Below, piece by piece: positions 16,822-64,000 of a DNA stretch of 64,000 bases (position 1 is its first letter; each line of letters begins with the position of its first letter). This DNA is from Gemmatimonadales bacterium (GTDB lineage: Bacteria; Gemmatimonadota; Gemmatimonadetes; Gemmatimonadales; GWC2-71-9), in the NCBI GenBank assembly GCA_037189525.1, contig JBBCJC010000002.1:768001-832000 (forward strand). Direction: 5' to 3'. Made by a program: the position numbers and the translations under genes. The notes under the pieces were generated by a model. That model had not been told where the DNA came from. It saw only the letters and a list, made by a program, of their open reading frames with translations, and made no database searches.

Positions 16822-16917
16822 TTATCCCCATTCTTTCCATCCACATTTTCCACACGGGACGAGCAGCGCCTTAAGCGCATGTCCTATCGCGTCATCAGAC
16901 CCACATCCCGATCCACA
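16822..16917 (+). promoter_or_regulatory. Cluster of co-oriented DnaA-box-like 9-mers
   Basis: TTATCCCCA 16822, CCATCCACA 16837, TTTTCCACA 16846, AGACCCACA 16897, CGATCCACA 16909, compared with consensus TTWTNCACA. Confidence 0.5.
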
Positions 16918-32239: not shown

Positions 32240-32400
32240 GCGCGCTCCTCCTCTATCGAAGCGGAAGGTCGATGGTGACGGAAAGCGGGGAATATAATCG
32301 TCTGCGGGGCGGCCTCCGGCGGGAGCCGAGACGGCCCTCATTGGGGCGTTCGGGGGCCGGATGTCCCGTAATCCGACAAACTTTGTTATCTTTCTAATCT

Positions 32401-32799
32401 GTGTCGAATACCAATCGTCGCCGCCGGGGCGGTCCTGCCCCCAGTGCGGCCCGCAGCTCGGAAACTCTTCGTCGTACGGGCAGTAAATCCTATCAGGCCC
32501 ACCGGGACGTCTTGATGGCTCGGTTCGGGCCGGTGTGTGCCTATTGCGGCGAAACCTTTGCGCCGGAAGAGATCACGCTGGACCATGTTCAACCGCGTAA
32601 GGGCAAGGTCGCTTACGACCGGTCGGACAACCTGGTGCTGGCGTGTAAGACCTGCAACGCCGCCAAGGCCGATATGCCCTTCCTGGGCTTCCTGCTCGCG
32701 CGGCGCTCCCGCGGGGTGTTCCTGCTCCACTATGGAGAGCATCTGTCCGAGGGCATCCGGCAGACCGTTCGGGACCTGGTCGAGAAACCGATCCTCTAA
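32401..32799 (+). CDS. HNH endonuclease-domain protein
   Basis: CAYCG...TLDHVQP...[13 protein letters not shown]. Confidence 0.88.
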
Positions 32800-33524
32800 A
32801 AATGCGGCGGCGGGGTCGGGTCCCCGCTCTTATGGATGCGGACCGACCAGGCGGGATCGGTCCGCGCGACCGCGGCTGCGTAGCCATCGGGCGCCTCGAT
32901 CCAGGCGCCGTGGACCGGCGAGGTCCCTTGGTTGGTGACGATGGTGAAACGGTCGCCGGGCCGAGCCTCGTCGAACGCCACCGAAAAGGCTTCGAGCGGG
33001 ATCGACAGCCCGCCGCCTAACGCCTTGATGTAGGCTTCCTTGGCAACCCAGTGCTGATAGAAGAGCGTCCGATGCCGCGCCGGGTCGGCCGCCGCCAGGC
33101 GGGCTCGTTCGCGCGGTGAGAAGACCGTCTCGGCCAGTTCGAGCAGGTCGAAATGATCGTGGCCGTGTTCGATGTCGATGCCGACGTCATGGTCGAGGGT
33201 CAGCGCGATCAGCGCCTCTGACCCCGAGTGCGACAGGTTGAATCGGATCTGGCTGCCCAGGTGGGGTGCGAGTTCCGGTTTCCCGTGCGGGCCCGTGACG
33301 ATCTCGACGTCGGCGGGGGCGAGGTCCAGGTAACTGCCGAGCACCTGGCGAAGGGTGCCGCGGGCGGTGACGTAGACCGACCGGTCCTTGTCGAAGACGA
33401 AGCGGGCGGCGCGTGTTCGTTCCGCGGCGGTGAGCGTCGAGTGCAGCGCGGCGGGAACGGTGGCCGGTACCGAGACCGGCCAGACCTCGATCCGGTCAGT
33501 GTGAAGCGGCGGAGGCGGCGTCAC
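32796..33524 (-). CDS. Sfp-type 4'-phosphopantetheinyl transferase
   Basis: Start trimmed to GTG at 33524; GKP, FNLSHS, VGIDIE, WVAKEAYIKALG. Confidence 0.93.
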   Translation of the reverse strand: MTPPPPLHTDRIEVWPVSVPATVPAALHSTLTAAERTRAARFVFDKDRSVYVTARGTLRQVLGSYLDLAPADVEIVTGPHGKPELAPHLGSQIRFNLSHSGSEALIALTLDHDVGIDIEHGHDHFDLLELAETVFSPRERARLAAADPARHRTLFYQHWVAKEAYIKALGGGLSIPLEAFSVAFDEARPGDRFTIVTNQGTSPVHGAWIEAPDGYAAAVARTDPAWSVRIHKSGDPTPPPHF

Positions 33525-35142
33525 GTTGCTCGCTTGGTCGCCAGCTGTCGACGATCTGGCCGTAGTCCAGTTTGATGACGCGGTCGCCCAGGTCGAAATA
33601 TCGATCGTCGTGGGTGATGACGACGACCGTCTTGCCGCGGGCCTTGAGCTCGGGCAGCAGCTCCGCATAGAAAATCTGCCGATAGCCCGGGTCCTGATCG
33701 GCGGCCCATTCGTCGAAGACGTAGACGGGACGGTCTTCCAGGTATGCCGCCATCAGGGCGAGCCGGCGTTTCTGTCCCTGTGACAGCGCCGTCGTCGACA
33801 GGACGCCGTCCTTCACGCTCACCTTGTGGTCGAGGCCCAGGCGCACCAGGTATTCACGGGCGCGGGTGTCGATATCGCCGTCGCCCAGACCGGTGACGTC
33901 GGGGAACAGGAAAAAGTCGGAGAAGACGGTTGCGAACTGCTGGCGATAGTTCTCGCGGTTCGCCGCGGTGACGGTCTCGCCGTTCAGCGCGATCGATCCC
34001 TCATCGGGTGGGTACAAGCCCGTCAGCAGTTTGACGAAGGTCGATTTGCCGCTTCCGTTGCCGCCGATGATGAAGACGAGTTCGCCGGGATGCAGCGTCA
34101 GGTCGACGGGGCCTAGTCCGAAGCCGCCGTTTGGATCGGAGCGATCGTAGCGGAAGGCCACGTTGCGGAACTCGATGGTGGCGCCGGGGCGATCCGTTCC
34201 GGCGAGTGGCGCATCTTCGGTGACGCGCTCCAGCGAGAGGCCGAGTTCGTCGATCCGGGCCAGCGCCGTCTGGCCGCGGTGGAAGATCGGAAGCGCGCCT
34301 AGCAGGGACCAGACGGGCCCCATGGCGTAGAGCGCCACGAAGGCAAACCCGGTCAATGATCGAGTCGAGGTCTCGAAGATGGCGGGCAGGGCAAAGAGCA
34401 TGACCCCCATGATCAGGAAGAACATGCTCTGGGTCCAGCCGTCGGCGGCGAGGTAGTGACGGGCCGCGTCGAGGCTCAAGCCGCGCAATCGCTCGGTCGT
34501 CTCCGGGATACTACCAGCCAGCAGATGATCGCGCCGCGCGCGATTCATCTTGATCTCTTTGATACCTTCCGTGATGGTGCGGTAGTGCCGGAACAGGACA
34601 TCGCGTTCGCGCCGCGCCGCGGTGATGGCTCCCGAAGCTCGGCGCATCAGCACTTTGTAGCCGAGCGCGGCCAGGATTCCGAAGATCACGAGCGCCAGCG
34701 CCGACGCCCATGAGAGAGCGGCGAGGTAGATGGTGCATCCCAAGAGCACCGCCGCATTGGTGATCACGGTCGGGATGGCCTGGACCGATGCGGAAAGGGT
34801 CCCGACGTCGTCCGTCAACGTGGTCATGATGCGGGCGGCGCCGATCTCTTCGAGCGTCCGGAACGGCGTTTCGACGACACGCGCACTGAGTTGATTGCAG
34901 AGGCGCAGGATTGCCTGCTGCGCATAGGTCGCGAGGTTCCACTGAGCAATCAGGTTGGTCGCGATGCGCGCCAGCGCGACGGCGATGAAGCCGACGACGA
35001 TCAGCGGGAGATTGGTGGTGTGGAGGGCGGCATTGACCAGCGCCACGAACCCGGCGCTGGCCAGGCCGCCGACGATACCGGCCAGGATGACGGTGATGAT
35101 GCCGCGTCGTCCGGTCCGGAACAGGAAGGCCAGCAGGTTCAT
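33496..35142 (-). CDS. Cyclic-peptide export ABC transporter (PvdE/SyrD/YojI family)
   Basis: TM domain; GIKEIK; GGNGSGKST; LSQGQKRR; FDEWAADQDP; ITHDDRY. Confidence 0.93.
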   Translation of the reverse strand: MNLLAFLFRTGRRGIITVILAGIVGGLASAGFVALVNAALHTTNLPLIVVGFIAVALARIATNLIAQWNLATYAQQAILRLCNQLSARVVETPFRTLEEIGAARIMTTLTDDVGTLSASVQAIPTVITNAAVLLGCTIYLAALSWASALALVIFGILAALGYKVLMRRASGAITAARRERDVLFRHYRTITEGIKEIKMNRARRDHLLAGSIPETTERLRGLSLDAARHYLAADGWTQSMFFLIMGVMLFALPAIFETSTRSLTGFAFVALYAMGPVWSLLGALPIFHRGQTALARIDELGLSLERVTEDAPLAGTDRPGATIEFRNVAFRYDRSDPNGGFGLGPVDLTLHPGELVFIIGGNGSGKSTFVKLLTGLYPPDEGSIALNGETVTAANRENYRQQFATVFSDFFLFPDVTGLGDGDIDTRAREYLVRLGLDHKVSVKDGVLSTTALSQGQKRRLALMAAYLEDRPVYVFDEWAADQDPGYRQIFYAELLPELKARGKTVVVITHDDRYFDLGDRVIKLDYGQIVDSWRPSEQRDAASAASH

Positions 35143-38100
35143 GCGGCTTCTCCGTCGGGTCGCCCTGGCTCGGAGCGATCCAGCACTTCGCTCAGGCGTT
35201 TCCCGAGGTTGACGACGTGCGGTCGTGTCAGCATCAGTCCGGAATCACCGCCCCCGATCGGGATGACTTCCTGGCCATCGGTTGCGCGCGCGGCCCAGGC
35301 GAGCCGCCGGTCACCCAGCCCTTCATCCGGTGCGCGGTCCGAGAAGAAGTGGACGATCCGCCCGCGATAGGTGCCGGGTGAATGGCTCTTCATCGCAAAA
35401 TAATTGGCTTGCTGCACGTCGGTCCGGGTTGCTTCCTGCGCACGGGCCTCGCGGATCGGTTCCGCCTTGGCCTCGGGTACCGGACGGAATACGGCGCGGA
35501 GCCGGGCCCAGCGCCGTTCCGCCGGTTGCTGCCACCAGACGAGCACCCGGTTGATCAGGCTGGCCGGCTTCCGCAGCATCCGATGGCGCGTCAGCTGGCG
35601 GCCGAGTCGGTCTCGCCAGGTGAGGGGACGAGGGGCGGGAACGTCGAGCAGGGCCAGAAGTTCGACCTGTTCCCCCGCCTGCTGGAGCTGAGTGGCCATC
35701 GTGTGAGCGATCATCCCGCCCATGCAGCCGCCCGCCAGGCGATACGGGCCATGCGGCTGTATCTCACGCAGCGCGGCGAGGTATTGCCGGGCCATCTCGT
35801 CGATGGTGCGCAGGAGCGGGGTCCGCCCGTCCAGGCCGATGGCCTGCAGGCCGTAGAACGGCTGCTCGGGGCCGAGTTCTCTCGCGAGGTCGACGTAGTT
35901 GAGGACGTTCCCGCCGATACCGTGGACGCAGAACAACGGCCGCCGGCTGCCACGGGATTCGATGGCGACCAGCGCGCCGGCCGGCCGGGCCGGGCCGGCA
36001 TTGCCCAGGACCTCTGCAAGCTGGGCAACCGTCGGAGCGGCCAACAGGGTCGCCAGCGAGAGCCGCTGACCGAACTCGCGCTCGATCGATGCAAACAGGC
36101 GCACCGCAACCAGGGAATGGCCGCCGAGGGAGAAGAAGTCGTCGTGGATGCCGACGGCCGGGACCTCGAGCGCCTCTTCCCAGAGGCGGCAGAGTCGCAG
36201 CTCGTTGGCGTTACGCGGCGGTGTCCGTTCGATGCTCGCGGGCGCCGACTGCAGTCGGGGAAGGGCGCGGAAGTCGACCTTGCCGTTCGGAGTCCGGGGC
36301 AACGCGGGCAGGATGCCGATGGCGCTGGGGACGGCGTAGGCCGGCAGTAGCGCAGCAAGCGCACGGCGGATCTCATCGAGGTCCGGTGGCGTGTCCCATG
36401 CGCCCGCCAGGTAGGCAACCAGGCGGATCTGGTCCGGCTCGGCGCCGTCGGTCGACGCAACGGTCTCGCGGACTCCCGGTATCCGAGCGAGGGCAGCTTC
36501 GACGTCGCCCAGCTCGACCCGGAATCCCCGGATCTTGATCTGCCGATCGGCGCGGCCGATGAAATCGATCGCGCCGTCGATGCGGTAGCGCCCCAGGTCG
36601 CCGGTGCGGTAGACCCGATCGTCGCTGAGCCCAGTGTATCCGTTTGGCGGGAACCGTTGCGCCGTGAGGTCGGGCTCCCGATGGTAGCCGGCGCTCAGGT
36701 AGGGCGTCCGGATCACGATTTCACCCGGTTCGCCGATCCCGGCGAGCTTGCCGTTCCGATCGAGGACCAGCAGTTGCACGTCGGCGATGCCGCGTCCGAT
36801 CGGAATGCTGCCCGTCTCCGGCGCAGCGGAACGATCGAGGTCGGCGTAACCCATCAATTGCGGCGTTTCGGTCGCGCCGTAGCCGTTCACGATCCGGGCC
36901 TCGGGTGCCAGCCGAGCGAACCGGTTGAGGCGGGCTCGGGTCAGCCGATCGCCGCCGAAGCAGACGAGGCGGAGCGAGGGAAGCGACAACGAGGCGTCGC
37001 CGGGATCCGCGATCAGTTCGACCATCGGCGGGGTCAGATGGGTGACGGTGACCCGCGCATCGCGCAGCCAGCGGCCGAGGTGGCCGGGGCCTTCGATCAG
37101 GTCACCGTCAGGTACGCACAGGGCGCCGCCGACCCAGATCGGCGCCAGCAGGTCACGCAGGAGCGGGTCGTGCGCCAGGCCGGACAGCATGCTGATCCGG
37201 TCCGACGGTCCGAGCTCGAAGGTTTCCTGGTACCACTCGCAGAAGTGGCCGAGTGGGCGGTGTGTGCCGACGATGCCTTTGGGCGTGCCGGTGGTTCCGG
37301 AGGTAAACGCCAGGTACGCAGTGTCGTCGGGTCCGACCTCGACGGCGAGTGGCGTTGCCGGGTGCTGCCGGGCGGCGGTGTGTGCCAGGTCGGCGCCGCT
37401 GCCGAGCGGAACGCGGGTCCAGCGTCGTTCGGCGATGATTGCTTCGAGGTCGGGGGCGAGCGGTGTCTTCTGATCGAGCCGGATCAGGATCGAGGGATCA
37501 GCCAGGTCGATGATCTGGGCCAGCCGTTCGGTCGGATAGGCCGGATCGAGGATCACGAACGCCGCACCGGTTTCCAGGGTGGCGAGGATCGCGAGCAGGA
37601 GGCTCGGATCGCGCGCAGCAAGCACTGCCACGACGGTGCCCGGACGAGCGCCCTCTTGCGCCAGCGCATTCGCGACGCGCCGGACCGCCTGATGCAACTC
37701 GCCATATCGCCACTGGTAAGCCCCGGCATCGAGCGCGATGTGGTCGGGGCTCTGCTCGGCGTGCCGAGCCAGCTGTGTGCCGACCGTGCCGGCCCAGGTG
37801 CTGGCCAGCGGAGCGACCGGGTCCGGAAGGACGGTTCGCGCCTGGGGCGTGACGAGGGAGATAGTCTCGATGGCGGCGTCCGGGTCCGAGGCGACGGCAT
37901 CGACCAGTTGGCTGTATTGTGCCAGCATCTCATCGATGCGGGCGGCGTCGAACAGGTCGGCGTTGTAGACCAGGGTCAACCGAAGCCCGGGACGATGGTC
38001 GACCGCGTACAGGGTCAGGTCGAACTTGGCCTCATCGGGAACGCCGCCACGGTGTTCGATGGCGACGCCGGGCAGCTGAAACGTATTGGTGGCAAACGCC

Positions 38101-39281
38101 AACAAGTTGAAGAACACCTGGAACAGCGGAGTCCGGCTCGGGTCGGGCGGCGGCTTCAACTCGGCGATGACGCGCTCGAGCGGGACGTCCTGGTGCAGGT
38201 GGGCTTCGCGGGTCGCGGTCCGCATCTGGCCCAGCAGGTCGCGGAAGCTGGGCCGGCCCTCGAATCGGGTGCGCAGCACGACCGTATTGACGAAGAACCC
38301 GATCAACCCCTCGGTTTCTGGGCGGCCGCGCCCGGCATATGGGGCGCCGATCAGAATATCGTCCTGGCCGGAGAGCCGATGCAGCAGGGCGCCGAACGCG
38401 CCAAGCAGCGCCGCGAACGGGGTCGTCTGTTCGGCTCGGCACAGCGTCAGCAGAGCCTGTTCGGTCGCTCCGCTCAGGTCGAAGGTGCGCTGTCCCGCCC
38501 GGAAGGTGCGCACGGGAGGACGGGGCCGGTCGGTCGGCAGGTCCAGCGCGGTCGGCGCGCCGGCCAGGCTGTCCCGCCAGTAGCGCACATGGGGCTCGGC
38601 ATCCGCACCTTCCGCCCAGGCGCGATGCCAGGCGGCGAAATCCCGGTACTGGATTGGCAAGTCGGGCAGGCTCGGCGCGCCGCCGGCGATCAGGGCCTTG
38701 TAATGGGCGGTCAGTTCGCGGAAGAAAACGTGAATCGACCAGCCATCCGAAATGATGTGATGGAATACCATCACGAAGATGTGGTCGTCCGGTCCGAGTC
38801 CAATCAGGGTAGGGCGGAACAGCGGTCCCTGGTGCAGGTCGAACGGCGCCGCCATCAATCGTTCCGCCGTGTTCCATCCCGCCTGCTCGCGCTCGCCTGG
38901 CGGGAGCGTCGTCAGGTCGATGGCCTCGATCGAGACGCTCTCGGGCGGGTGCGCGACCTGGGTGGCGCCCTCGGGTCCGGAGACGAACGTCGTCCGCAGG
39001 GTTTCATGACGGCGTACGATTTCGCGGATGGCCGCTTCGAAAGCCGGCCGATCGAGCGGTCCCCGGAGCCGGAATGCGAACGGGATGGTGTAGGCGGTAC
39101 CATCGGGTTGCAGCTGATCGGCCAGCCACAGGCGCTCTTGATAGAGGGAGAGCCGGGCGGGGCCGCTTCCGTCTACGCGGGGCAGGGTGGCCTTCGTCTG
39201 GTCCGAGCCGGCGGCGGCCCGCTCGAGCAACAGTTGCTTGAGCCGGCGGCGCTTTTCGGCAACCGGATCTGGCGTCGTCAT
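35139..39281 (-). CDS. Single-module termination NRPS (docking-C-A-T-TE)
   Basis: Start trimmed to ATG at 39281; C HHIISDGWS; A FTSGTTGTPKG, YRTGDL, NGKVD; T FFSLGGHSL; TE LAGGCMGG. Confidence 0.95.
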   Translation of the reverse strand: MTTPDPVAEKRRRLKQLLLERAAAGSDQTKATLPRVDGSGPARLSLYQERLWLADQLQPDGTAYTIPFAFRLRGPLDRPAFEAAIREIVRRHETLRTTFVSGPEGATQVAHPPESVSIEAIDLTTLPPGEREQAGWNTAERLMAAPFDLHQGPLFRPTLIGLGPDDHIFVMVFHHIISDGWSIHVFFRELTAHYKALIAGGAPSLPDLPIQYRDFAAWHRAWAEGADAEPHVRYWRDSLAGAPTALDLPTDRPRPPVRTFRAGQRTFDLSGATEQALLTLCRAEQTTPFAALLGAFGALLHRLSGQDDILIGAPYAGRGRPETEGLIGFFVNTVVLRTRFEGRPSFRDLLGQMRTATREAHLHQDVPLERVIAELKPPPDPSRTPLFQVFFNLLAFATNTFQLPGVAIEHRGGVPDEAKFDLTLYAVDHRPGLRLTLVYNADLFDAARIDEMLAQYSQLVDAVASDPDAAIETISLVTPQARTVLPDPVAPLASTWAGTVGTQLARHAEQSPDHIALDAGAYQWRYGELHQAVRRVANALAQEGARPGTVVAVLAARDPSLLLAILATLETGAAFVILDPAYPTERLAQIIDLADPSILIRLDQKTPLAPDLEAIIAERRWTRVPLGSGADLAHTAARQHPATPLAVEVGPDDTAYLAFTSGTTGTPKGIVGTHRPLGHFCEWYQETFELGPSDRISMLSGLAHDPLLRDLLAPIWVGGALCVPDGDLIEGPGHLGRWLRDARVTVTHLTPPMVELIADPGDASLSLPSLRLVCFGGDRLTRARLNRFARLAPEARIVNGYGATETPQLMGYADLDRSAAPETGSIPIGRGIADVQLLVLDRNGKLAGIGEPGEIVIRTPYLSAGYHREPDLTAQRFPPNGYTGLSDDRVYRTGDLGRYRIDGAIDFIGRADRQIKIRGFRVELGDVEAALARIPGVRETVASTDGAEPDQIRLVAYLAGAWDTPPDLDEIRRALAALLPAYAVPSAIGILPALPRTPNGKVDFRALPRLQSAPASIERTPPRNANELRLCRLWEEALEVPAVGIHDDFFSLGGHSLVAVRLFASIEREFGQRLSLATLLAAPTVAQLAEVLGNAGPARPAGALVAIESRGSRRPLFCVHGIGGNVLNYVDLARELGPEQPFYGLQAIGLDGRTPLLRTIDEMARQYLAALREIQPHGPYRLAGGCMGGMIAHTMATQLQQAGEQVELLALLDVPAPRPLTWRDRLGRQLTRHRMLRKPASLINRVLVWWQQPAERRWARLRAVFRPVPEAKAEPIREARAQEATRTDVQQANYFAMKSHSPGTYRGRIVHFFSDRAPDEGLGDRRLAWAARATDGQEVIPIGGGDSGLMLTRPHVVNLGKRLSEVLDRSEPGRPDGEAA

Positions 39282-39724
39282 CGAAGGCCGAATCGGGTGG
39301 AGGACGTGATCATAGGCACGAATCGACCTAAGAAGTGCAATTTCTATGCACCATAAGATATGGTGTTGCTTAGAGGCATCACCTTCGCGTCGTTTTGCGA
39401 GAAACCTCGCTTTCAGCGGTCGCCCTGATGGCCGGGGACCGGTCAATATGGTCGGGTCTGCCGGAGCGCCGGGTCTCACTTCCTGTTGTGTTGATGTAAG
39501 TTATTGTAATATATGTAGCTTACGGTTCAGGTCATGAGGGGATTCCTGGGAGAGAATCGGGGTCGGGCAGGAACCTGACATGCGGCGCTGAGACTACACT
39601 GGAGTGCTCAGTCGTTGCATGCGCGCGACGACGACGTTAATTGGGGCGTGGTGTTTCGCCTGCGATAGACCCGAACGCCGTTGTCGGTTCCGGGGAAACC
39701 GAGGGGATGGCTTTCCCCTCTCCC

Positions 39725-39741
39725 TCGGCACAGTCGTTGCC
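39725..39741 (+). promoter_or_regulatory. Putative sigma54 (-24/-12) promoter of the TEII-PKS operon
   Basis: tcGGCACagtcgTTGCc matches GGCAC-N5-TTGC with exact spacing. Confidence 0.6.
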
Positions 39742-39898
39742 TTATCTATGGGGTTGCGGGAGTTCTGGCCCTCGTCGGTTTACCGGACCACCTAGCGAAT
39801 GACTTGCGTTCGGGGCGTCGAAGGCTGGCCCGCGCCGGGGTCTCGTTCGCCTCCGTTGGTGGGAAATCCGGGCGAGGTTGCACAACCAAGGGCACTCA

Positions 39899-40699
39899 AT
39901 GTTGCGTCGCGAAGAAATCCAGGCATCGAACGGCTGGGTAGTCGCTGTCGGACGGAATCCGGCGGCGACGGTGCGCCTGGTGTGCTTCCCGCCTGCCGGG
40001 ACCGGGGCCGCATCCTACCGCGGCTGGTCTGAGTCGGCGCCTGGGTGGCTCGAAGTCTGTGCCGTTCAGTTGCCTGGCCGGGAAACCAGACTTCGCGATG
40101 TCCCGATGACTGACCTCGATCGGCTGATCCCGGAGCTCGGGAAAGCGCTGTTGCCGGTTCTGGACCGGCCGTTTGCCTTTTACGGGCACAGCCTGGGCTC
40201 GATCATCGCGTTCGAGACGGCGCGATGGCTCCGGCACCAGGGTGCTCCGCTGCCCGCAGCCATGTTCGTCGGCGCCAGCCGTCCTCCCCAGTTTCCGTGG
40301 CCCGATCCGCCGGTTCGGGATCTGCCGGACCTCGAGCTGCTCGAGGAGGTCAATCGCCGCTACGACTCGGTGCCCGATGTCGTGATGGCGGAACCGGAAC
40401 TCCGCACGCTGCTCACGCCCGCGCTTCGGGCCGACATGGCGTTGATCGAGACCTACCGGTATCGATCCGAAATGCCCTTCGATTTTCCGATTCAGGCCTT
40501 CTGGGGCGCCGCGGACCGGAAGGTGGCGCAGGCGGATATGGCACAGTGGCAGGAGCAGACGCTTGGTGCGTTCGAGCTCCAGCGCTTTGCGGATGGGCAT
40601 CTTTTCCTGTTGCCTCGCCGGCAGGACATCGTTGCGGCAGTCGCATCGCTGCTGACCCGATCGATGGCGGTCGGGTCTGAACGTCCCGGACGCCCCTGA
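39899..40699 (+). CDS. Type II thioesterase
   Basis: LVCFPPAGTGA, QLPGRE, GHSLG, LRAD, DGHLF. Confidence 0.93.
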   Translation: MLRREEIQASNGWVVAVGRNPAATVRLVCFPPAGTGAASYRGWSESAPGWLEVCAVQLPGRETRLRDVPMTDLDRLIPELGKALLPVLDRPFAFYGHSLGSIIAFETARWLRHQGAPLPAAMFVGASRPPQFPWPDPPVRDLPDLELLEEVNRRYDSVPDVVMAEPELRTLLTPALRADMALIETYRYRSEMPFDFPIQAFWGAADRKVAQADMAQWQEQTLGAFELQRFADGHLFLLPRRQDIVAAVASLLTRSMAVGSERPGRP

Positions 40700-55600: not shown

Positions 55601-58600
55601 GGTCAGGTCGAATTCCGCCGGCCGCTCGAGATCATGGACGTTCCGCTCGAATTGGAAACGATCGTTCGACCGCGAGTCGATGGCGGGCTCGAGGTTCAGG
55701 TTAAAGGGCGCCGCTCGGCGGATGACGGCTGGGAAACGTATGCCGGCGCTGTCGTCGCGCCGTCCACGCCGGCCTCCGGTGAGGTGGTTGCATCCGCACC
55801 GGCTGATGCCGCATCGATCGATCTTCAAGATTGGTATGACCGCTTGGAGGCGGTCGGCGCCCATTTCGGTCCGGGGTTCCGGTCGCTGGACGCTGCGTGG
55901 CAAGAGGATGGTGTTGCCTGGGGCCGAGTCCGGGCTTCAGGGGCATGGTCGTCGGGATGGGCGCTTACGCCGACCTTGCTCGACGGGTGTATTCAGGTCG
56001 GCAATCTCGCCATCGGTGGCGACGAGCGATTGCTGATGCCGGCGGCGATGGCGGGGTATCACTTCTTCGGTGTCCGCAGCGAAGGCCCCTTGGTCGTGCG
56101 CGGCGAGCGGAGCGGAGCGTTGACGGTCAACCTCGATATTGGCACCGTGGACGGAACCCCGGTCGCCAGATTCGAGGGGCTTCGCTTTGCCGTGCCCCTG
56201 GCGCGCGATCGGGATGAGCTTCCCGAATTCGAGACGCGCTGGGTGCCGGCCGAACTGCCTGTGGGTACGGGGCCGGGCGGGTGGAGCGTCGTCGGTAGCT
56301 CCGCGGATGCCGTACTGGGCGAACAGTTGGCAACACAGTTGCGCGCGATTGGCGTCGACGCGGCGTGGCAGGATTGGGCCGGGCTCGAGATCGCTGGACG
56401 TGACAATGTTGCCGTCCTTCAAGTGGCATCGATCGATCCGCTGTCGGATGGCCTCGCCATCGCAAAACGGCTCGGTGCGGCATCGGTCAGCCGCGTCGTG
56501 CTGCTGACCTCCGGAGCGCAAGCGGTGCGCGATGGTGAGCGCCCGCGTGTCGAGGCGGCCGGTCTGTGGGGATTGTGGCGGGCGGCGCAGCTCGAGTCTC
56601 CCGCCGTCGCGACTCAGCGGATCGATCTCGATCCCGATGGTACCGATGCCGACATCGTAACCGTGGCCCGATGGCTTGCGGCGCCGGCGGCGGGTGAAAC
56701 GGAGCTCGCGCTCCGCCGAGGTGAGGCCCTTGCTGCGCGGCTTCTGCCACGATCGCGCTGGCGACAACCGACTCGGCTCGTGGTCGGCCGGCCGGGTGAG
56801 CTCGAGTCGATCGGGTTTTCGTCGTTCGAGCCGCGGACCGTCGGCCCCGACGAGGTGGCGATCGCAGTCGAAGCGGCCGGGCTCAATTTCCGAGACGTGC
56901 TTGCCGCGCTCGGGATGTTCGGCGGTGCCGACACCGTGCTCGGCGGTGAATCCAGCGGCCGCATCACCGCAGTCGGCTCGGCTGTCACCGACCTGCAGGT
57001 GGGTGATCCGGTCATCGCGCTGGCGCCGGGCGGGCTTGCGACGGAAGTGGTGGTGCCTAGAGCGGCGGTCATTCGCCGGCCGGCATTGCTGTCGCCGGCA
57101 CGTGCCGCGGGTGTGCCGGTGGCGTACCTGACCGCCATGCTCGGCCTCGAGGTCCTTGCGCGGATCAAGCCCGGCGAGCGGGTCCTGGTCCACGCCGGTG
57201 CTGGCGGAGTCGGCCAGGCGGCCATCCGCATTGCGCAGCGGGCAGGGTGTGAGGTCTACGCGACTGCGGGATCCGAGACCAAGCGCCGCCTGGTCGAGTC
57301 GTTAGGCGTGACGGGGGTGCACGATTCCCGATCGACCTCGTTCCGCGATTGGATCCTGGACCGGACCCGGGGCGAGGGTGTCGACGTCGTGGTCAACTCG
57401 CTGTCGGGACCGGCCATCGACGCCGGTTTCGAGGTCCTCCGGCCCGGCGGACGATTCCTGGAATTGGGTAAGCGGGGCATCTGGACGAGTGAGCAGGCGC
57501 ATCGCGCCTTCCCGATGGTTCGGTATCTCCCGTTCGATCTGGGTGAAATGACGGCGGCCGATCCCGACCTGCTGTCCCATCTCATGGCGCGCCTCGAAGC
57601 GGGGCTCGGGGATGGATCGATTACGCCGTTGCCCGTGACCGCGCACCGCCTGTCGCAGCCCGTCGATGCGTTCCGGGTCATGGCGCAGGGCCGGCATACC
57701 GGAAAACTCGTCTTCGTTCAGGACCTCCGACCGGTTCCCGGCCGAGTGCAGCCAGACGCGACGTATCTGATCTCCGGAGGAACCGGGGGAATTGGCTTGG
57801 AAGTTGCCCGCGAGTTGGCGCGCAGCGGAGCCAAATCGCTGGTCCTGCTTTCCAGGCAGGGGGGCGATGTTGCGCAGGCGGCAGTGGAGCGGCTGGCTGA
57901 CACTGGCGCAACCGTCCAGGTGATCGCAGTCGATCTGGCCCGTGGCGAGCGCGCGACGACGGCGTTGCGCGCGGCGCTCCAGACGGTGCCACCGGTTCGC
58001 GGGGTGATTCACGCCGCGGGTTTTGCCGTCGACGGACCGATTCAGGAACAGTCCGCGGAGTCTCTGGCGGCGACCTGGGCGGTCAAGGTCGACGGTGCGC
58101 AGGTACTGCTGGACGCGGTGGACGCCCGGGGTCTCGATTTCTTCGTCACTTTCGGCGCTGGGGCTGCGACCCTGGGGTCGGCGGGTCAAGCGACCTACGC
58201 TGCGGCAAATGCGGGGCTCGAGGCCTGGACACTCGCTCGCTTCGCATCCGGAGATGCAGCCTCGGTCGTGGCCTGGGGGCGCTGGGCCGATGTGGGCATG
58301 GCGGCCCGGTTGCGTTTGGTCGATCAGGATCGCCTCACCAGACTGGGCATCGGGACCATCGAACCGAATGCCGGTGTGTCGGTGCTCATGGATGTGATCG
58401 CTCGCTCCGTACGCGATACTGCCGTGTTACCGATGGACTGGGCCCGGTATCTCCGGGAATCCGGCCGGCAGGGCGATCGGCGGTTTCAGGAACTGGGAGG
58501 GAGCGGCACTGGCGGGAAGGCTGAATCGTTGCTCGAGCGGATCGGCGCACTTCCGGTGCGCGAGCGGCGCGCGGCCGTACGCGCGGCTGTGGAAGCGGCA

Positions 58601-58918
58601 TCGCGTCGCGTGCTCGGTGCTGCGCCCCATCTCGTGATCGATCCCGGTATCGCGCTTCGTGACTTGGGGCTCGACTCGCTGCTGGCGGTGGAGCTTCGCA
58701 ACGCGTTGGTCGCGGCGTTCGGACGACCTTTGCCGACGACGGTGGCCTTCGATCACCCCACGATCGATGCGCTGACCGATCTGGTAGGTGCGGATCTGGT
58801 CGAGGCGCCGCCGGCCGGCACGGAGTCGCGAGAGCCGGCGGAAGTCCTGGCCATGTCCGACGCGGAAGCGGAGGCGGCGCTGTTGCGGGAACTCGAAGCG
58901 GGAGAGCCGGGGCGATGA
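52688..58918 (+). CDS. Type I PKS, KS-AT-DH-ER-KR-ACP
   Basis: KS DTACSSS; AT GHSIG, HAFH; DH HRLGDRAVLP, DGCIQ; ER VHAGAGGVG; KR GGTGGIG, YAAAN; ACP GLDSL. Confidence 0.95.
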   Translation: MTDPTSVERQALAAIRQLRDKLESIERARREPIAIVGVGCRMPGAPSPAAFWDLLVGGREAIRPLPAERWGGSPAEESAGFEAGVLDQVDGFDAEFFGISPREARFTDPQQRLFLEVAWEALEDAGIAPTSLKGSATGVFVGTTTTDYLDLVFRHTPLDALDAYVVSGNTLNAVAGRVAFTLGLQGPAIAMDTACSSSLVAIDRACRSLRDGESSMAIAGGVNLILGPEILASLAKWGMLSPASRCKTFDASADGFVRGEGCGALVLKRLSDAERDGDPIRAVILGSAVNQDGASAGFSVPNGLAQEAVIRAALASAGIRAGEVGYVETHGTGTPLGDPIEIEALTSVFGDGRAMDRPLLVGSVKTNIGHLEAAAGVAGLLKVVLSLQHGTIPPHLNLRTPNPHIPWERIPISVPGEATGWDPIGNRRIGAVSSFGFSGTNVHIVLAEAGAAVAVPPAEQSTHLVTLSARSKAGRGAVAQAYADALESGAIEVRDLGLAVSAGRAALPVRAAVVGADRAEVVAGLRQVAEQTDDRTGVIATGTARRDTVGFLFTGQGSQYVGMASDLAANCDAFRAAFDEAVAALDPELDAPLAVVMNASDGRIDQTRYTQPALFALQYGLVAAWRSFGVEPAVVLGHSIGEYAAACCAGVLDLATASRLVAARARLMGELPAGGAMAAVAADAERVAAVLRSAAGIVSIAATNAPDETVISGDAAAVRAVVRELEGQGIRVRPLTVSHAFHSPLMEPMLPTFLRAVEPVTRRDPRLTVISTVSGAPADAEFGTARYWAEQIRAPVRYADAVRSLAAAGVSLAIEIGPHPVLTGLLERNGVAARPLASLRRGQDGWRTLLAAVGESFVRGVVDDWSGADGARRRGRVAVPTYPFQRVRHWIADQPRTAGVSVTGTSVHPLLGVRLPVALDERIYHRFLSLGDAGTLAEHRLGDRAVLPAAALLDLFAAVGREGRVSGSVSIGQVEFRRPLEIMDVPLELETIVRPRVDGGLEVQVKGRRSADDGWETYAGAVVAPSTPASGEVVASAPADAASIDLQDWYDRLEAVGAHFGPGFRSLDAAWQEDGVAWGRVRASGAWSSGWALTPTLLDGCIQVGNLAIGGDERLLMPAAMAGYHFFGVRSEGPLVVRGERSGALTVNLDIGTVDGTPVARFEGLRFAVPLARDRDELPEFETRWVPAELPVGTGPGGWSVVGSSADAVLGEQLATQLRAIGVDAAWQDWAGLEIAGRDNVAVLQVASIDPLSDGLAIAKRLGAASVSRVVLLTSGAQAVRDGERPRVEAAGLWGLWRAAQLESPAVATQRIDLDPDGTDADIVTVARWLAAPAAGETELALRRGEALAARLLPRSRWRQPTRLVVGRPGELESIGFSSFEPRTVGPDEVAIAVEAAGLNFRDVLAALGMFGGADTVLGGESSGRITAVGSAVTDLQVGDPVIALAPGGLATEVVVPRAAVIRRPALLSPARAAGVPVAYLTAMLGLEVLARIKPGERVLVHAGAGGVGQAAIRIAQRAGCEVYATAGSETKRRLVESLGVTGVHDSRSTSFRDWILDRTRGEGVDVVVNSLSGPAIDAGFEVLRPGGRFLELGKRGIWTSEQAHRAFPMVRYLPFDLGEMTAADPDLLSHLMARLEAGLGDGSITPLPVTAHRLSQPVDAFRVMAQGRHTGKLVFVQDLRPVPGRVQPDATYLISGGTGGIGLEVARELARSGAKSLVLLSRQGGDVAQAAVERLADTGATVQVIAVDLARGERATTALRAALQTVPPVRGVIHAAGFAVDGPIQEQSAESLAATWAVKVDGAQVLLDAVDARGLDFFVTFGAGAATLGSAGQATYAAANAGLEAWTLARFASGDAASVVAWGRWADVGMAARLRLVDQDRLTRLGIGTIEPNAGVSVLMDVIARSVRDTAVLPMDWARYLRESGRQGDRRFQELGGSGTGGKAESLLERIGALPVRERRAAVRAAVEAASRRVLGAAPHLVIDPGIALRDLGLDSLLAVELRNALVAAFGRPLPTTVAFDHPTIDALTDLVGADLVEAPPAGTESREPAEVLAMSDAEAEAALLRELEAGEPGR

Positions 58919-61900
58919 CCGAACCAGCGGGGGAGATGTCGGCGGTCAAACGCGCCCTGGTCGAGATTCGCGATCTCCGGGCCCGGCTTGCCCGCGCCGA
59001 ATCGGCGGCGCGCGAACCGATCGCGGTCATCGGGCTGGGCTGTCGTTTTCCGGGTGGTGTCACGGGCCCCGAGGAACTCTGGTCGCTGCTCGAGTCGGGG
59101 ACGGACGCGGTTGGTCCGGTGCCGGACGATCGATGGGATCGTGACGGCCTTTACCATCCCGATCCGGATCATCCCGGCACGATGGTGACGACTCAGGGTG
59201 GGTTCATCGCCGGTGTCGACCGCTTCGATGCGGAGTTCTTCGGGATTGCCCCCATCGAGGCGGCGTCGATGGATCCGCAGCAACGGCTCTTGCTCGAGGT
59301 GGCCTGGGAAGCGCTCGAACGAGCCGGAATTGCGCCGGATGCGCTGCGAGGGTCGCCGACCGGCGTGTTCATTGGGATCGGGAACAGCGACTACTGGCGG
59401 ATGATGTTCTCCGCGCGTGACCGATTGGATGCTTACGCTGGGTCTGGAGGAAGCTACGCCGTGACCGCCGGTCGGTTGGCCTATACGCTCGGTCTGCAGG
59501 GGCCGGCTATGGCGATCGACACGGCATGCTCCGCATCGCTCGTCGCAATTCACAATGCCTGTCAGAGTCTCCGCAGCGGCGAGTCGAACCTGGCGCTCGC
59601 GGGCGGCGTCAATCTGATCCTGAGTCCGGAGGCGCATATCGCGTTCTCGAAGGCCAGGATGATGGCACCGGACGGGCGCTGCAAGACGTTCGATGCCTCC
59701 GCCGACGGCTATGGACGTGGCGAAGGGTGCGGCATCGTCGTCTTGCGTCGACTCTCGGATGCGGTGGCGGGGGGCGACAGGATCCTCGCGGTGGTTCGAG
59801 GGTCGGCTCTCAACCAGGACGGCAGGAGTGGTGGCCTGACCGTTCCGAACGGTCCTGCACAGGTTGCGGTAATTCGGGCGGCGCTCGCGATGGGCGGTCT
59901 GGCGCCAGCAGACGTCGACCTGGTCGAGGCCCATGGTACCGGAACTCCGCTTGGCGACCCGATCGAGCTGGGTGCGCTCGCGACCGCCTATGGTGAAGGC
60001 CGTTCGGCCGATCGGCGTCTGCTCGTTTCATCGCTCAAGACCAACTTCGGTCATCTCGAGGCGGCGGCGGGAATCGCGGGGTTCATCAAAGCGGTGCTCG
60101 CGGTGGAGCGGGGTACCGTGCCGGCTCATCTGCACTTCCGGACGCCGAGTCCGCACGTCGACTGGGCCGCGCTGCCGGTTCGAGTGCCGGCCGTGTCGGA
60201 GCCTTGGCCTGAGGTCGGCAGTCGTCCTCGTCGCGTCGGCGTCAGCTCGTTCGGCTTCAGCGGTACCAATGCGCATGTGATCGTGGAGCAGGCACCCGCG
60301 GTCGATCAGCCCGCGGTCCCGCCTTCCCGGTGGGTGCTGAGCGGTTCGGCGCGATCGGAGGCCGCCTTGGCGCAGCTTGCGGCGCAGTATGCCGATGCCG
60401 TCGCCGGTTCCGACGATGGCGGGGCATCGCTCGCGGTGGTCAGCGGCGTCGGGCGGGCTGCCCTGCGCCATCGGTTTGCGCTTCCCATGGCGGAGCCGGG
60501 CACCCTGATCGATTCGCTGCGCACACTTGCCGAGGGCGGACGACCGTCGTTGGGACACGTGGGTGCAGTCACGCCGGGCCAGTCGCCGCGCATCGCGTTC
60601 CTGTTCTCGGGTCAGGGGTCTCAGTACGCCGGGATGGGGGCCGAGTTGTACCGGACCGAGCAGGTCTTTCAGGCCGCGGTCGATCGCGCCATTCGTGCCG
60701 CCGGCGAGATCGGGCCCACCGTACTCGGTGCGCTGCTCGGCAGTCCGGGTATCGATGCGGTTGAGCCCAGGATTGCGCAGCCGGCGTTGCTTACGCTCCA
60801 GTATGGTTTGCTCGAGTTGTGGCGCTCCTGGGGCGTCGAGCCGGCCCTTGTCGCCGGCCACAGTCTCGGGGAATTCGCGGCGGCGGTTGCTGCAGGCGTG
60901 CTCGATATCGAGATCGCGATGTCCATCGTCCGAATCCGGGGTCGGATGATGCAGGCGCTTCCCGCGGGTGGCGGCATGCTCGTGGTCGAGACCGGCGAAC
61001 AGGGGGTGCAAGGCGTGCTCCAACGTTTCCCTGAGCTCGAGCTATCCGCCGTGAATGGAACGGCTCAGGCGGTGGTGGGCGGCCCATTGGATACGATTGC
61101 CGCAGCAACCGAAGCACTCCAAGCGGAGGGGATTCGCGCGAGACCGTTGGCCTTGTCGCATGCCTATCACACCAGCGCCATGGATCCGATGCTGGAGGAG
61201 TTCGTGGCGGCTATCGGCAGTTACGGCGTGTCCCGTCCGCTGCTGCCTGTGGTGTCTTCTCTCACGGGAATCGAGGCCGATGCGACCTTCGCCACGCCGA
61301 GTTACTGGGCCAGTCAGATCCGATCGACCGTTCGGTTTTCCAATGCGCTAGGGAAGGTTCTCGATGCGGGCGCCACACATCTGATCGAGATCGGTCCGCA
61401 CCCCGTGTTACTCAGTCTGGCCGCCGATCGCGCCGGAGTCACCCCGCTGCCGTCGCTCAGGCGCGAGACGCCGGTCTGGCCCGTATTGCTCGATGGGGTC
61501 GCCGCGCTCTTCGTCGACGGCGTCCCCGTGCGCTGGCGTAATGTTCAGTCCGGCGGCGCCTGGCGTCCCGATACAGCGCCAACGTATCCGTTCGAACGGC
61601 GCCGGTATTGGATCGACGCGGTCGATGCGGATGCTCGTTACTCGTCTGCTCAGCGGTGGGATGCGGTCGTAGCCGCAGCACAACGGCAATCCGAACAGGC
61701 GCCGCTCAGGTATCGGGCCGATACGATCGGGGAGACGTGGGCTTCGCTCGCACGACTGACCTGGGCTCACGCGGCTGAGACGTTCCGGCGACTCGGTGCT
61801 TTCGATGATGCGCCGCTCGGGCGATCCGTCGATGAAGTCGTCGAGCGGACGGGGATCAAGCCGCTCTACCGCCATCTGATCGAGCGTTGGCTCGAGCGCC

Positions 61901-63273
61901 TTGTGGACACCGGACGCCTCGAACGGGTCGGGCCGCGCTACCGGCCGGCGGGAGGCTCGCTTGCCGCGGTTTCACTTGGGCCGGTGTGGCAGGAAGCTCA
62001 GGGCCGGCTGGCATCCGATCCTGCGCTGCTTACCTACCTCGAAGGATGCGGCCGACTGCTGCCCGCGGTGCTGACAGGCGAGGTCAGTCCGCTCGAAACC
62101 CTCTTTCCGAACGGATCGTCGACGCTGGCCGAAGCGCTCTACGCCGAAACGGGCGTGATGCGATACGTCAATCTGATCGCAGCCGCCGCAATCGAAGCCG
62201 CCGCATCTCGGACTCGTAGCGGTCGACTTCGCGTGCTGGAGATCGGTGCGGGGACCGGTGGCACGACGGTGGCCGTCGCGCCGCGTCTCGATCCGGAGCG
62301 AACCGACTACTGGTTTACCGACGTATCGGATCTTTTTCTGGCCCGTGCATCGGAACGGTTTGGTACCGCGTCGCAGTTCCGCTACGCTACGCTCGACCTC
62401 GATCGGGATCCTTTCGATCAGGGCTTCACGGTCGATTCGTTCGACATCGTCTTGGCGACCAACGCAGTGCACGCCACCAAGGATCTGCGCGCCAGCCTGC
62501 GGCGAATCCACGACCTGCTGGCTCCCGGGGGGGTGCTTGTTCTGGTCGAGAGTACCGAGCACCTCGACTGGTTCGATATGAGCACGGGCCTGATCGAAGG
62601 GTGGCAACACTTTGAGGACGACCTCCGGGGCGACAACCCGCTGCTCGAGCCGGCGCAATGGCGTGGTGCGCTGGGCGCCGCAGGATTTGCTGCGGTAGTC
62701 GTGGCGCCGGAGGATGACTCACCCGCGTCGGCAGGTGGGCAGCGTGTGATTCTCGCGCGGAAGCCGGGCGAAGATGTCCCGACCCGGATCGATCAGGACG
62801 CGCCCGGACAGGCTCGGGTCGCGGGGAAACCTGTGCCGGCGGTCGATCCGGCAGCATCGTTGCTCGAAATGCTTCGGGATGCGCCGTCGGATGAACGCGA
62901 ATCGATCCTGATCGGCTTTGTGCGCGACCATGTGATGCGAACCCTTCGCCTGGCTCCCGACGCGGAGCCGGGGCGAACCGACCGGCTGCTCGATATCGGC
63001 TTCGATTCGTTGATGGCAGTGCAGTTCCGCAATGCGCTCGGCGCCGGTCTGGGCCTCGATGCGCCGTTGTCCGCCACGTTGCTGTTCGATCACCCTACCA
63101 TCGAGGCGATCGCGCGCTTCCTGTTGGGCCGGCTCGGTCTCGCGGCCAGTCCTGCTGCTGCGCCGGTATCGGCTTCCGAGCCGGGTGCGGCACTCAGCGA
63201 GGCGGATCTCGCGGCCATGACCGATGACGAAGTAGCCATTTTCCTGGAACGTCGTTTGGGCGAGGGGACATGA
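58915..63273 (+). CDS. Type I PKS, KS-AT-cMT-ACP
   Basis: KS DTACSAS; AT GHSLG, HAYH; MT LEIGAGTGG, NAVHAT, GLIEGW; no KR; ACP GFDSL. Confidence 0.95.
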   Translation: MTEPAGEMSAVKRALVEIRDLRARLARAESAAREPIAVIGLGCRFPGGVTGPEELWSLLESGTDAVGPVPDDRWDRDGLYHPDPDHPGTMVTTQGGFIAGVDRFDAEFFGIAPIEAASMDPQQRLLLEVAWEALERAGIAPDALRGSPTGVFIGIGNSDYWRMMFSARDRLDAYAGSGGSYAVTAGRLAYTLGLQGPAMAIDTACSASLVAIHNACQSLRSGESNLALAGGVNLILSPEAHIAFSKARMMAPDGRCKTFDASADGYGRGEGCGIVVLRRLSDAVAGGDRILAVVRGSALNQDGRSGGLTVPNGPAQVAVIRAALAMGGLAPADVDLVEAHGTGTPLGDPIELGALATAYGEGRSADRRLLVSSLKTNFGHLEAAAGIAGFIKAVLAVERGTVPAHLHFRTPSPHVDWAALPVRVPAVSEPWPEVGSRPRRVGVSSFGFSGTNAHVIVEQAPAVDQPAVPPSRWVLSGSARSEAALAQLAAQYADAVAGSDDGGASLAVVSGVGRAALRHRFALPMAEPGTLIDSLRTLAEGGRPSLGHVGAVTPGQSPRIAFLFSGQGSQYAGMGAELYRTEQVFQAAVDRAIRAAGEIGPTVLGALLGSPGIDAVEPRIAQPALLTLQYGLLELWRSWGVEPALVAGHSLGEFAAAVAAGVLDIEIAMSIVRIRGRMMQALPAGGGMLVVETGEQGVQGVLQRFPELELSAVNGTAQAVVGGPLDTIAAATEALQAEGIRARPLALSHAYHTSAMDPMLEEFVAAIGSYGVSRPLLPVVSSLTGIEADATFATPSYWASQIRSTVRFSNALGKVLDAGATHLIEIGPHPVLLSLAADRAGVTPLPSLRRETPVWPVLLDGVAALFVDGVPVRWRNVQSGGAWRPDTAPTYPFERRRYWIDAVDADARYSSAQRWDAVVAAAQRQSEQAPLRYRADTIGETWASLARLTWAHAAETFRRLGAFDDAPLGRSVDEVVERTGIKPLYRHLIERWLERLVDTGRLERVGPRYRPAGGSLAAVSLGPVWQEAQGRLASDPALLTYLEGCGRLLPAVLTGEVSPLETLFPNGSSTLAEALYAETGVMRYVNLIAAAAIEAAASRTRSGRLRVLEIGAGTGGTTVAVAPRLDPERTDYWFTDVSDLFLARASERFGTASQFRYATLDLDRDPFDQGFTVDSFDIVLATNAVHATKDLRASLRRIHDLLAPGGVLVLVESTEHLDWFDMSTGLIEGWQHFEDDLRGDNPLLEPAQWRGALGAAGFAAVVVAPEDDSPASAGGQRVILARKPGEDVPTRIDQDAPGQARVAGKPVPAVDPAASLLEMLRDAPSDERESILIGFVRDHVMRTLRLAPDAEPGRTDRLLDIGFDSLMAVQFRNALGAGLGLDAPLSATLLFDHPTIEAIARFLLGRLGLAASPAAAPVSASEPGAALSEADLAAMTDDEVAIFLERRLGEGT

Positions 63274-64000
63274 CGACCGAGTCGACGTCCGGGTCCGGGC
63301 TGAGTCCGCTCAAGCGCGCCGTGCTGGCGCTCGAGGAGGCGCGCGCGCGGATTGCGCAGCTCGAACGGGGCGCCCGCGAGCCGATTGCGGTCATCGGCAT
63401 CGGATGTCGTTTCCCGGGTGGGGCCAATTCGCCGGCCGCGCTCTGGAAGCTGCTGTGCGATGGCGTCGATGCGATCGGTGAGATTCCTTCGGATCGTTGG
63501 GACGTCGACGCCTACTTCGACGCCGATGTCGATGCGCCGGGCAAGATGAACACGCGGTTCGGCGGCTTTGTCGATGGCATCGATCGGTTCGACCCCGGCT
63601 TCTTCGGGATCTCGCCGCGCGAGGCCGCCAGTATGGACCCGCAGCAGCGGTTGGTGCTCGAAGTCGCCTGGGAAGCGCTGGAGCGGGCGGGCATTGCGCC
63701 CGATCGGCTGGCGGAGTCGCGCACGGGCGTGTTCGTCGGGATCGTCGGGACCGACTATGCGCAGCTGATGACGGAAGCGGGCGTGGTCGGATCGGATACC
63801 TATTTTGCCTCCGGTATCGGCCACAGCGTTGCGTCCGGACGGATTTCCTATGTGCTCGGCCTCAAGGGACCCAGCGTGTCGGTCGATACCGCCTGCTCGT
63901 CGTCTCTCGTCGCGACGCATCTGGCGGTGCAGAGCCTGCGCACCGGAGAATGCGATCTCGCGCTGGCCGGCGGGACCAACGCGATCCTGACGCCGGATAC
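63270..64000 (+). CDS. Type I PKS, fifth gene, KS domain (truncated by the window end)
   Basis: Not in the ORF track. ATG at 63270 reads MTTESTSGSGLSPLKRAVLALEE...REPIAVIGIGCRFPG...MDPQQRL...DTACSSSLVA. Confidence 0.93.
   Translation, partial: MTTESTSGSGLSPLKRAVLALEEARARIAQLERGAREPIAVIGIGCRFPGGANSPAALWKLLCDGVDAIGEIPSDRWDVDAYFDADVDAPGKMNTRFGGFVDGIDRFDPGFFGISPREAASMDPQQRLVLEVAWEALERAGIAPDRLAESRTGVFVGIVGTDYAQLMTEAGVVGSDTYFASGIGHSVASGRISYVLGLKGPSVSVDTACSSSLVATHLAVQSLRTGECDLALAGGTNAILTPD

Follow-up and report, generated by a model that had tools for sequence, protein, structure and literature searches.

The 64,000-nucleotide stretch of Gemmatimonadales DNA analysed here (the window; contig JBBCJC010000002.1 of assembly GCA_037189525.1, positions 768,001 to 832,000 of the forward strand; G000:C2:768001-832000 in the numbering used below, G000 being this genome, 4.65 Mb, 98% complete) carries the left part of an intact 58-kb gene cluster with eight single-module cis-acyltransferase (cis-AT) polyketide synthase (PKS) genes and one nonribosomal peptide synthetase (NRPS) gene. 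The eight PKSs and the NRPS would operate as one assembly line, on which a methyl-branched chain is built, closed to a 6,6-spiroketal, joined to an acidic amino acid and released by a cysteine thioesterase (TE) without a catalytic histidine; the chances of this reading are put at about even, its chemical steps being deduced from gene content, domain order, active-site residues and conservation of order, all of which were read directly. A first-pass annotation of the window had described a 4'-phosphopantetheinyl transferase (PPTase), an exporter, a terminal NRPS, a type II TE and at least five mono-modular PKS genes over more than 31 kb, open at the right edge. All of these were present, intact and in place (Pfam, NCBIfam); the window holds the type II TE gene, four PKS genes in full and the beginning of a fifth, and the cluster runs 27 kb beyond the right edge of the window, to G000:C2:859242. 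Modules 5–8, the hydroxyl–ketone–hydroxyl spacing, the His-less Cys TE and a phylum-wide family of related clusters are additional to that annotation.

The cluster consists of the following features (window positions unless G000:C2 is given; KS, ketosynthase; AT, acyltransferase; DH, dehydratase; ER, enoylreductase; KR, ketoreductase; cMT, C-methyltransferase; ACP and PCP, carrier domains; C, condensation; A, adenylation):

32796..33524 (−): PPTase, Sfp/HetI-like, 242 aa, GTG start; PF01648, NF042922; left cluster border
33496..35142 (−): cyclic-peptide export ABC transporter, 548 aa; TIGR01194, 470.7 bits (cut-off 286.2)
35139..39281 (−): terminal NRPS, C-A-PCP-TE, 1380 aa
39282..39877 (no strand): intergenic region separating the divergent operons; weak evidence of a sigma-70-like promoter match (minus strand; 1 found, 0.2 expected)
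39878..40699 (+): type II (editing) thioesterase, GHSLG; PF00975
40699..47055 (+): PKS1, KS-AT(VASH, methylmalonyl-type)-DH-ER-KR-ACP; active-site Cys
47052..52691 (+): PKS2, KS-AT-cMT-KR(no LDD)-ACP; predicted source of the C15 hydroxyl
52688..58918 (+): PKS3, KS-AT-DH-ER-KR-ACP; KR with Ala for catalytic Ser, DH and ER motifs intact
58915..63273 (+): PKS4, KS-AT-cMT-ACP, without reductive loop; predicted source of the C11 ketone (spiro centre)
63270..64000 (start only; G000:C2:831270-838817) (+): PKS5, KS-AT-DH-cMT-ER-KR(His for Tyr)-ACP
G000:C2:838814-845362 (+): PKS6, KS-AT(LAAH)-DH-cMT-KR(no LDD)-ACP; beyond the window
G000:C2:845362-846264 (+): EamA/DMT membrane protein between PKS6 and PKS7; beyond the window
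G000:C2:846261-852716 (+): PKS7, KS-AT-DH-ER-KR-ACP; beyond the window
G000:C2:852721-859242 (+): PKS8, KS-AT-DH-ER-KR-ACP; right border

All 13 genes (eight PKS, the NRPS, the type II TE, the EamA protein, the exporter and the PPTase) are full-length, and no tailoring enzymes are encoded among them. They form two divergent operons about 600 nt apart; within each operon neighbouring genes overlap by 1, 4 or 29 nt, except for a 4-nt gap before the last PKS gene. The earlier statement that all genes are translationally coupled thus stands within the operons, apart from that gap, and not for the cluster as a single unit. The term "self-contained" does not apply strictly, a loading module being absent.

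Numbered from the amide carbonyl in gene order, the predicted chain would carry a C16-methyl, a C15-hydroxyl, a C14-methyl, CH2 at C13 and C12, a C11-ketone, one or two methyls at C10, CH2 at C9, a C8-methyl, a C7-hydroxyl, one or two methyls at C6 and four further CH2 groups. PKS1 would be primed directly by a short acyl unit, since a loading module is absent. With a starter of at least two carbons, module 2 would give the C15 hydroxyl, module 3 the C13 CH2, module 4 the C11 ketone, module 5 the C9 CH2 and module 6 the C7 hydroxyl or an alkene. The C15-hydroxyl, C11-ketone and C7-hydroxyl would together be the precursor of a 1,7-dioxaspiro[5.5]undecane, both hydroxyls standing 1,5 to the ketone; ring closure onto the ketone could be spontaneous or take place on the enzyme. 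DH6 would either be blocked by a gem-dimethyl alpha-carbon or yield an enoyl thioester to which the hemiketal adds back. The C domain would acylate the amino acid; the TE would load the chain on Cys1186 and free the product without a histidine base, after which it would be exported. The product would most likely leave as a free N-acyl amino acid or with the residue closed to a small ring, because no hydroxyl would be left for a macrolactone. Formation of spiroketals from a ketone and two hydroxyls by PKS logic has been described for the pteridic acids, with spontaneous closure (PMC10652019), and is discussed for ossamycin (PMC6490886).

The dihydroxy-ketone with 1,5 spacing on both sides, predicted from the domains, is conserved; DH6 and KR3 leave doubt. 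Further clusters were obtained by a TE profile search of 400 genomes of the phylum, and a search for the KR-less module gave nine full-length matches among 400 genomes; from these, five more genomes were chosen by that module alone. The core order is KR-only, DH-ER-KR, cMT without KR, DH-cMT-ER-KR, cMT-KR; it was found whole, in order and on one contig in 9 of 12 genomes (G000, G021, G504, G505, G519, G561, G179, G252, G546). In G614 four of the core genes share a contig and the fifth lies on a different one; G005 and G558 yield only fragments. The prediction of the spiroketal core had been fixed before the five genomes were read: G179, G252 and G546 match it fully, G614 and G558 to the limits of their contigs. 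The order of modules 3 and 4 is fixed by bimodules in which a DH-ER-KR and a cMT-only module are fused in that order (P0316 from Vicinamibacterales, P0310, P0320). The first hydroxyl module reaches the identical methyl-hydroxy unit in two ways, by a cMT or by a VASH-type AT. In the fifth core module the DH is absent from 4/12 genomes (G504, G505, G252, G546), so that the hydroxyl is the plain reading there, and present in 8/12; in G000, G179, G614, G519 and G561 this DH is accompanied by a cMT and an AAH/ASH-type AT, a combination that could yield a quaternary carbon and so block dehydration. A His-type KR occupies the fourth core module in 12/12 genomes (2/209 background KRs, homologues), the DH catalytic residues being kept, and an Ala-type KR the second core module in 7/11 (1/209 background KRs). 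All seven first modules placed in the KS tree (FastTree) form one clade with 98% local support; in six relatives the first module is KR-only.

The ends of the chain vary among the related clusters, whereas the core is fixed. From A-domain codes compared with standard codes, the tails of G504, G505, G519 and G561 are presumably Gly-Gly-PKS-Val, Gly-PKS-Val or Thr-Gly-PKS-X. The G463 loci and G505:C1 have such NRPS ends, with no long PKS series in the stretches read. In one relative only, a stand-alone condensation-domain gene (G505:C4:476450-477961, L217) lies between the KR-less and the next module. PKS/NRPS genes in overlapping frames or without a detected domain were seen at G519:C13:355510-360094, G252:C1:172187-209512 and G546:C1:3871876-3875469; these split or gapped genes may reflect assembly error or decay. 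Taken with relatives in Acidobacteriota, the clusters are tentatively proposed, with rather less than even confidence, to make an undescribed family of spiroketal lipo-amino acids and lipopeptides in Gemmatimonadota, with a fixed core, swappable spacers and tails, no loading module and a new catalytic class of TE in which Cys works with Asp and Arg in place of His. No characterised modular-PKS product from Gemmatimonadota was found in the literature covered (mostly abstract openings, with few subscription papers).

PKS domains: KS Cys-His-His, AT GHSxG with Ser and the ACP Ser are present in 8/8 modules; an AT in every module agrees with the cis-AT PKS/NRPS type assigned earlier. AT1 has VASH, AT2-5, 7 and 8 are HAFH-like, and AT6 has LAAH; VASH is a methylmalonyl and HAFH a malonyl marker (PMC7327777). 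Supply of hydroxy- or methoxymalonyl units to the LAAH AT was considered and rejected: the sole FkbH-like gene of the genome lies about 470 kb away, near lasso-peptide-like genes, and has no carrier domain. That locus (L191:5045-12330; G000:C2 ~327,000-334,300) holds transglutaminase-like, asparagine-synthase-like and S9 peptidase genes (lasso-peptide-like) around the FkbH-like gene; third-position GC of four genes of the locus is 0.52-0.55. All four methyltransferase domains have the S-adenosylmethionine (SAM) motif ExGxGTG and the HAT catalytic His, and a PDB search of two of them gave the CurJ C-MT as top match (E 1e-62 and 1e-55), with no PKS O-MT structure among the matches; because of these motifs and the first rank of CurJ the domains are assigned as CurJ-type C-methyltransferases, and an O-methyltransferase reading of modules 2 and 4 (beta-methoxyacrylate type) is rejected on the same matches. 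In KR5 His replaces Tyr and in KR3 Ala replaces Ser; KR2 and KR6 have no LDD, a motif that in KRs usually accompanies dehydration. DH catalytic residues and ER cofactor motifs are retained in the modules with altered KRs; DH6 keeps HxxxGxxxxP and Asp, i.e., both catalytic residues. According to a review, the KR Tyr is sometimes replaced by His, and a Ser-to-Ala change can abolish KR activity (PMC7327777). The domain logic given earlier for modules 1-4 holds (AT1 VASH, the others malonyl-like, CurJ-type C-MTs), except that "fully reduced" for module 3 is less sure because of the Ala at the catalytic Ser position of KR3.

PKS1 begins at a KS with Cys and has no N-terminal docking helix. Neither a loading module (AT-ACP, KSQ or FAAL-ACP) nor an extra carrier domain was found in or adjoining the cluster (17 PF00550 matches genome-wide). 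The domain order of PKS1 is that of mycocerosic acid synthase (Mas), with a VASH AT; Mas is not its top structural match. A homologue search with the first KS was dominated by multi-module actinobacterial proteins and gave no placement.

NRPS: the domain order C-A-PCP-TE, with the C motif HHIISDG, fits the canonical termination-module order. The A-domain code is DPRHCGGQLK (DPRHCGFQAK also occurs in orthologues). Among published codes, DPRHLALLAK is listed for the residue "AMA" and DPRHVSLLAK for Asn (PMC12283262), and DPRHLALLAK was predicted to specify aminoadipate in zeamine A1 (PMC3547906); the best specific-function NCBIfam matches include aminoadipate reductase (below cut-off). The A domain likely activates an acidic amino acid (Asp/Glu type). 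Among the PDB alignments shown, none was of an A domain with this code, and the supplement text of PMC12283262 contains no match for it; image tables there could bear on the question. The best plasmid NRPS match, from Burkholderia gladioli (36%), differs in its gene set and ends in a TE of the Ser/His type.

The TE has the nucleophile Cys1186 (GGCMGG), Asp1213, and Asp1346 at the position of the catalytic His (DSG motif). In alignments, Asp1346 takes the place of the His that His-type TEs and AB3403 have, so the residues depart from the canonical Ser/Cys-Asp-His triad; the predicted model is a confident normal alpha/beta hydrolase fold (pLDDT 89.6). In 216 TE stretches (the query and matches in 152 related proteins) the nucleophile/base pairs were Ser/His 124, Cys/His 40, Cys/Asp 25 and Ser/Asp 0. 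An xSG motif occurs in 26 stretches, four of which are from the query and its orthologues; Cys and two Arg residues are invariant in all 26, and Cys, DSG and Arg are strictly conserved across proteins 36-44% identical. A cyclic-peptide exporter directly follows the Cys/DSG-type TE in 5/7 loci vs 6/130 other TE loci (160 loci screened; 23 without room downstream). In characterised Cys TEs, ring closure depends on the Cys, and a His is used (PMC6668435, PMC11298585, PMC13288461, PMC10510592); a Cys TE with Asp for His was not found described in the literature covered. Further contexts of the Cys/DSG TE are an A-PCP-TE frame that continues into a thiamine-diphosphate enzyme, a C-PCP-TE protein lacking an A domain, and a separate short open frame after a C-A protein (P0240, P0256, L113:4434-5375).

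Several observations weigh against the spiroketal amino-acid reading. The catalytic His and Asp of DH6 are kept in G000, as are those of the equivalent DH in seven other genomes, so that by default an alkene at C6=C7 would be read for these. In 7/11, Ala replaces the catalytic Ser in the KR that precedes the ketone module. No spirocyclase-like gene was found in the cluster, whose 13 genes are otherwise assigned; profiles of OssO, AveC and RevJ were not searched elsewhere in the genome. The exact code DPRHCGGQLK was not found in the literature covered, and the A code varies among orthologues. A TE without His could be inactive. The sequence would fit either mono- or dimethylation, more than one starter unit and more than one substrate of AT6 (LAAH). 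Finally, the 12 genomes are kin and were chosen by similarity, so that the counts express conservation and are not an independent statistical test.

Intact HxxxGxxxxP and Asp of DH6 would suit permanent dehydration by module 6 to an alpha-methyl alkene in a product that has either a single hemiketal ring or an open ketone, the Cys TE closing a macrolactone between the amino acid and the C15-hydroxyl; characterised Cys TEs tend towards ring closure and with Ser in place of Cys they hydrolyse (PMC6668435, PMC13288461), and the exporter belongs to a cyclic-peptide family with the 5/7 association given above. This outcome is judged somewhat unlikely, however: the equivalent module has no DH in 4/12 relatives, KR6 of G000 lacks the LDD usually paired with dehydration, and the conserved 1,5,9 spacing would go unexplained. 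An unlikely case is that reduction is overstated, with KR3 (Ser to Ala) or KR5 (Tyr to His) dead, as their substituted active sites would allow, or with PKS1 iterating like mycocerosic acid synthase, the outcome being a polyketone or a longer chain and another cyclisation. Iteration would agree with the Mas domain order, the VASH AT, the missing docking helix and the placement of the KS in its own first-module clade, but the KR-only first modules of six relatives and the rank of Mas below the top structural match argue otherwise; against dead KRs stand the DH catalytic residues and ER cofactor motifs kept beside them and, for KR3, four relatives with Ser at the same KR.

Replacement of the catalytic His by Asp, with Cys in 25/25 Asp-type stretches (Ser in 0) and two invariant Arg, could also mean that the NRPS TE is a Cys acyl-transfer domain or a dead one, the acyl-amino acid being passed to an outside acceptor or released by the type II TE. 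We regard this as decidedly unlikely, since Cys, DSG and Arg are strictly kept across the 36-44% identical proteins and no gene of the cluster would supply an acceptor; it touches release only and is compatible with the spiroketal. That the cluster is a silent or decaying island without a product is extremely improbable: its patchy distribution (3/22 genus genomes) and the split genes in the relatives G519, G252 and G546 would fit, but 13/13 genes of G000 have their full length, the catalytic residues of KS, AT and ACP are all intact, and in independent samples strains 95-98% alike cover the same stretches with few listed indels. No RNA run was among those listed as containing the sequence, which has no bearing on expression. 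The assembly is sound. A chimera, raised earlier as a possible refutation, was checked for and rejected: a Logan contig of 81,146 bases (run X1, which may be the source data) spans both compared 20-kb stretches with 0 differences, and contigs of X2 (a separate study of activated sludge, ~95-98% alike) bridge tkt-PPTase-ABC-NRPS, EamA-PKS7 and PKS8-amidohydrolase-sucA.

Insertion site: the cluster lies between tkt and sucA in three congeners (3/22 genus genomes). DNA immediately left of the PPTase gene is matched in 22/22 genus genomes and is therefore host DNA; right of PKS8 follow a convergent host amidohydrolase gene and then sucA. A 118-aa open reading frame at 32386-32742 was rejected as a spirocyclase candidate (it matches DNA in 22/22 genus genomes and 0 other-genus clusters) and is probably a shadow of a host gene. 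Orthologues of the NRPS were found in 2/21 congeners (G005, G021; 63-65%), and among 400 family genomes orthologue-level matches to its PCP-TE only in these two (73-76% vs <=49% for the rest); a GTDB locus scan showed no orthologue among the matches listed. Of the 19 other congeners, 16 have tkt and sucA on a single contig and no more than ~8 kb apart, and three have them on different contigs. The cluster is thus an insertion confined to a single subclade. Seven PKS genes are present in G021, and five are seen in G005 across an assembly gap. Between G000 and G021, 12/13 flanking genes are 84-95% identical and cluster genes 34-80%; in trees of KS and AT domains, modules 6-8 show no one-to-one pairing. 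At third positions the PKS genes have a GC of 0.73-0.79, three flanking genes one of 0.84-0.88. These data suggest module exchange after or during acquisition. The Gemmatimonadota host assumed in the first-pass annotation is borne out by the window transaldolase, which falls in the same 90% cluster as two proteins named Gemmatimonadales bacterium.

Other loci: window 33-4619 encodes a ClpV/TssH-like ATPase, an FHA protein and a Ser/Thr kinase (all below curated cut-offs), which suggests the end of a type VI secretion-like locus. At 13752-16880 (−) a 1042-aa open frame has as its sole family match a cold-shock domain within its final 70 residues; it may consist of a small csp gene and a long shadow reading frame in phase with it. 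The genome has three more NRPS/NRPS-PKS loci (G000:C1:223,000-235,100; G000:C2:1,088,000-1,094,400; G000:C5:1,072,400-1,074,500).

Through this analysis an anonymous cluster from a phylum with hardly any cultured members gains a predicted structure that can be tested: a methylated spiroketal core whose natural variants differ in the length of the spacer and in the peptide tail. Being complete, free of tailoring genes and 58 kb long, the cluster suits heterologous expression. Its TE represents a conserved subfamily without the catalytic His that reviews count in the triad, so that the mechanism is a question for enzymology. Versions with seven and eight modules at one chromosomal site in close relatives are a natural record of module exchange.

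Comparison with known systems: the cluster works like a cyanobacterial or myxobacterial cis-AT PKS-NRPS line, and no characterised cluster to which it belongs was identified among the named matches, in agreement with the first-pass annotation (best named PKS match AjuB, 44% identity; named matches outside congeners <= ~50%). With the lines of CurJ (curacin, PDB 5THY), DisA (6CCA) and AjuB (ajudazol) it shares one AT per module, mostly malonyl-type, SAM C-MTs closest to CurJ, single-module genes with helical docking ends, and a type II TE, PPTase and exporter; unlike them it has no loading module, another module order, a Gemmatimonadota host, a His-less Cys TE and no tailoring enzymes. The predicted ring methylation would also resemble that of calcimycin and aplysiatoxin. 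With the 6,6-spiroketals of Streptomyces, i.e., pteridic acids (pta) and ossamycin/oligomycin (oss/olm), it would share a retained ketone and two hydroxyls set by module logic (PMC10652019, PMC6490886); those are products of multi-module actinobacterial PKSs, and oss encodes a putative spirocyclase while pta needs no dedicated one, whereas here methyls come largely from cMT domains, the amino acid is added last and the cluster has no spirocyclase. Angiolam (ang) of Myxococcaceae likewise comes from a cis-AT hybrid that has one amino-acid module and releases its product by a TE, but differs in its 12 modules on five genes, loading module and internal Ala module; in the main text of that paper the word methyltransferase is absent (PMC10913735). 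The GxCxG nucleophile ending an NRPS module is shared with the Cys TEs ObiF1, SulM, MacB/PmxB and AB3403, the last (4ZXH) being the best PDB match of the TE subfamily profile, with His at the Asp1346 position. The triad of ObiF1, SulM and MacB is Cys-His-Asp (PMC6668435, PMC11298585, PMC13288461), as against Asp for His followed by Ser-Gly and two invariant Arg here; ObiF1 and SulM have a His base and Asp moved from site I, whereas here Asp stands at site I and His is absent. The Gln-Cys-Asn motif and the sulfotransferase gene of the SulM system (PMC11298585) are likewise not shared by this cluster.

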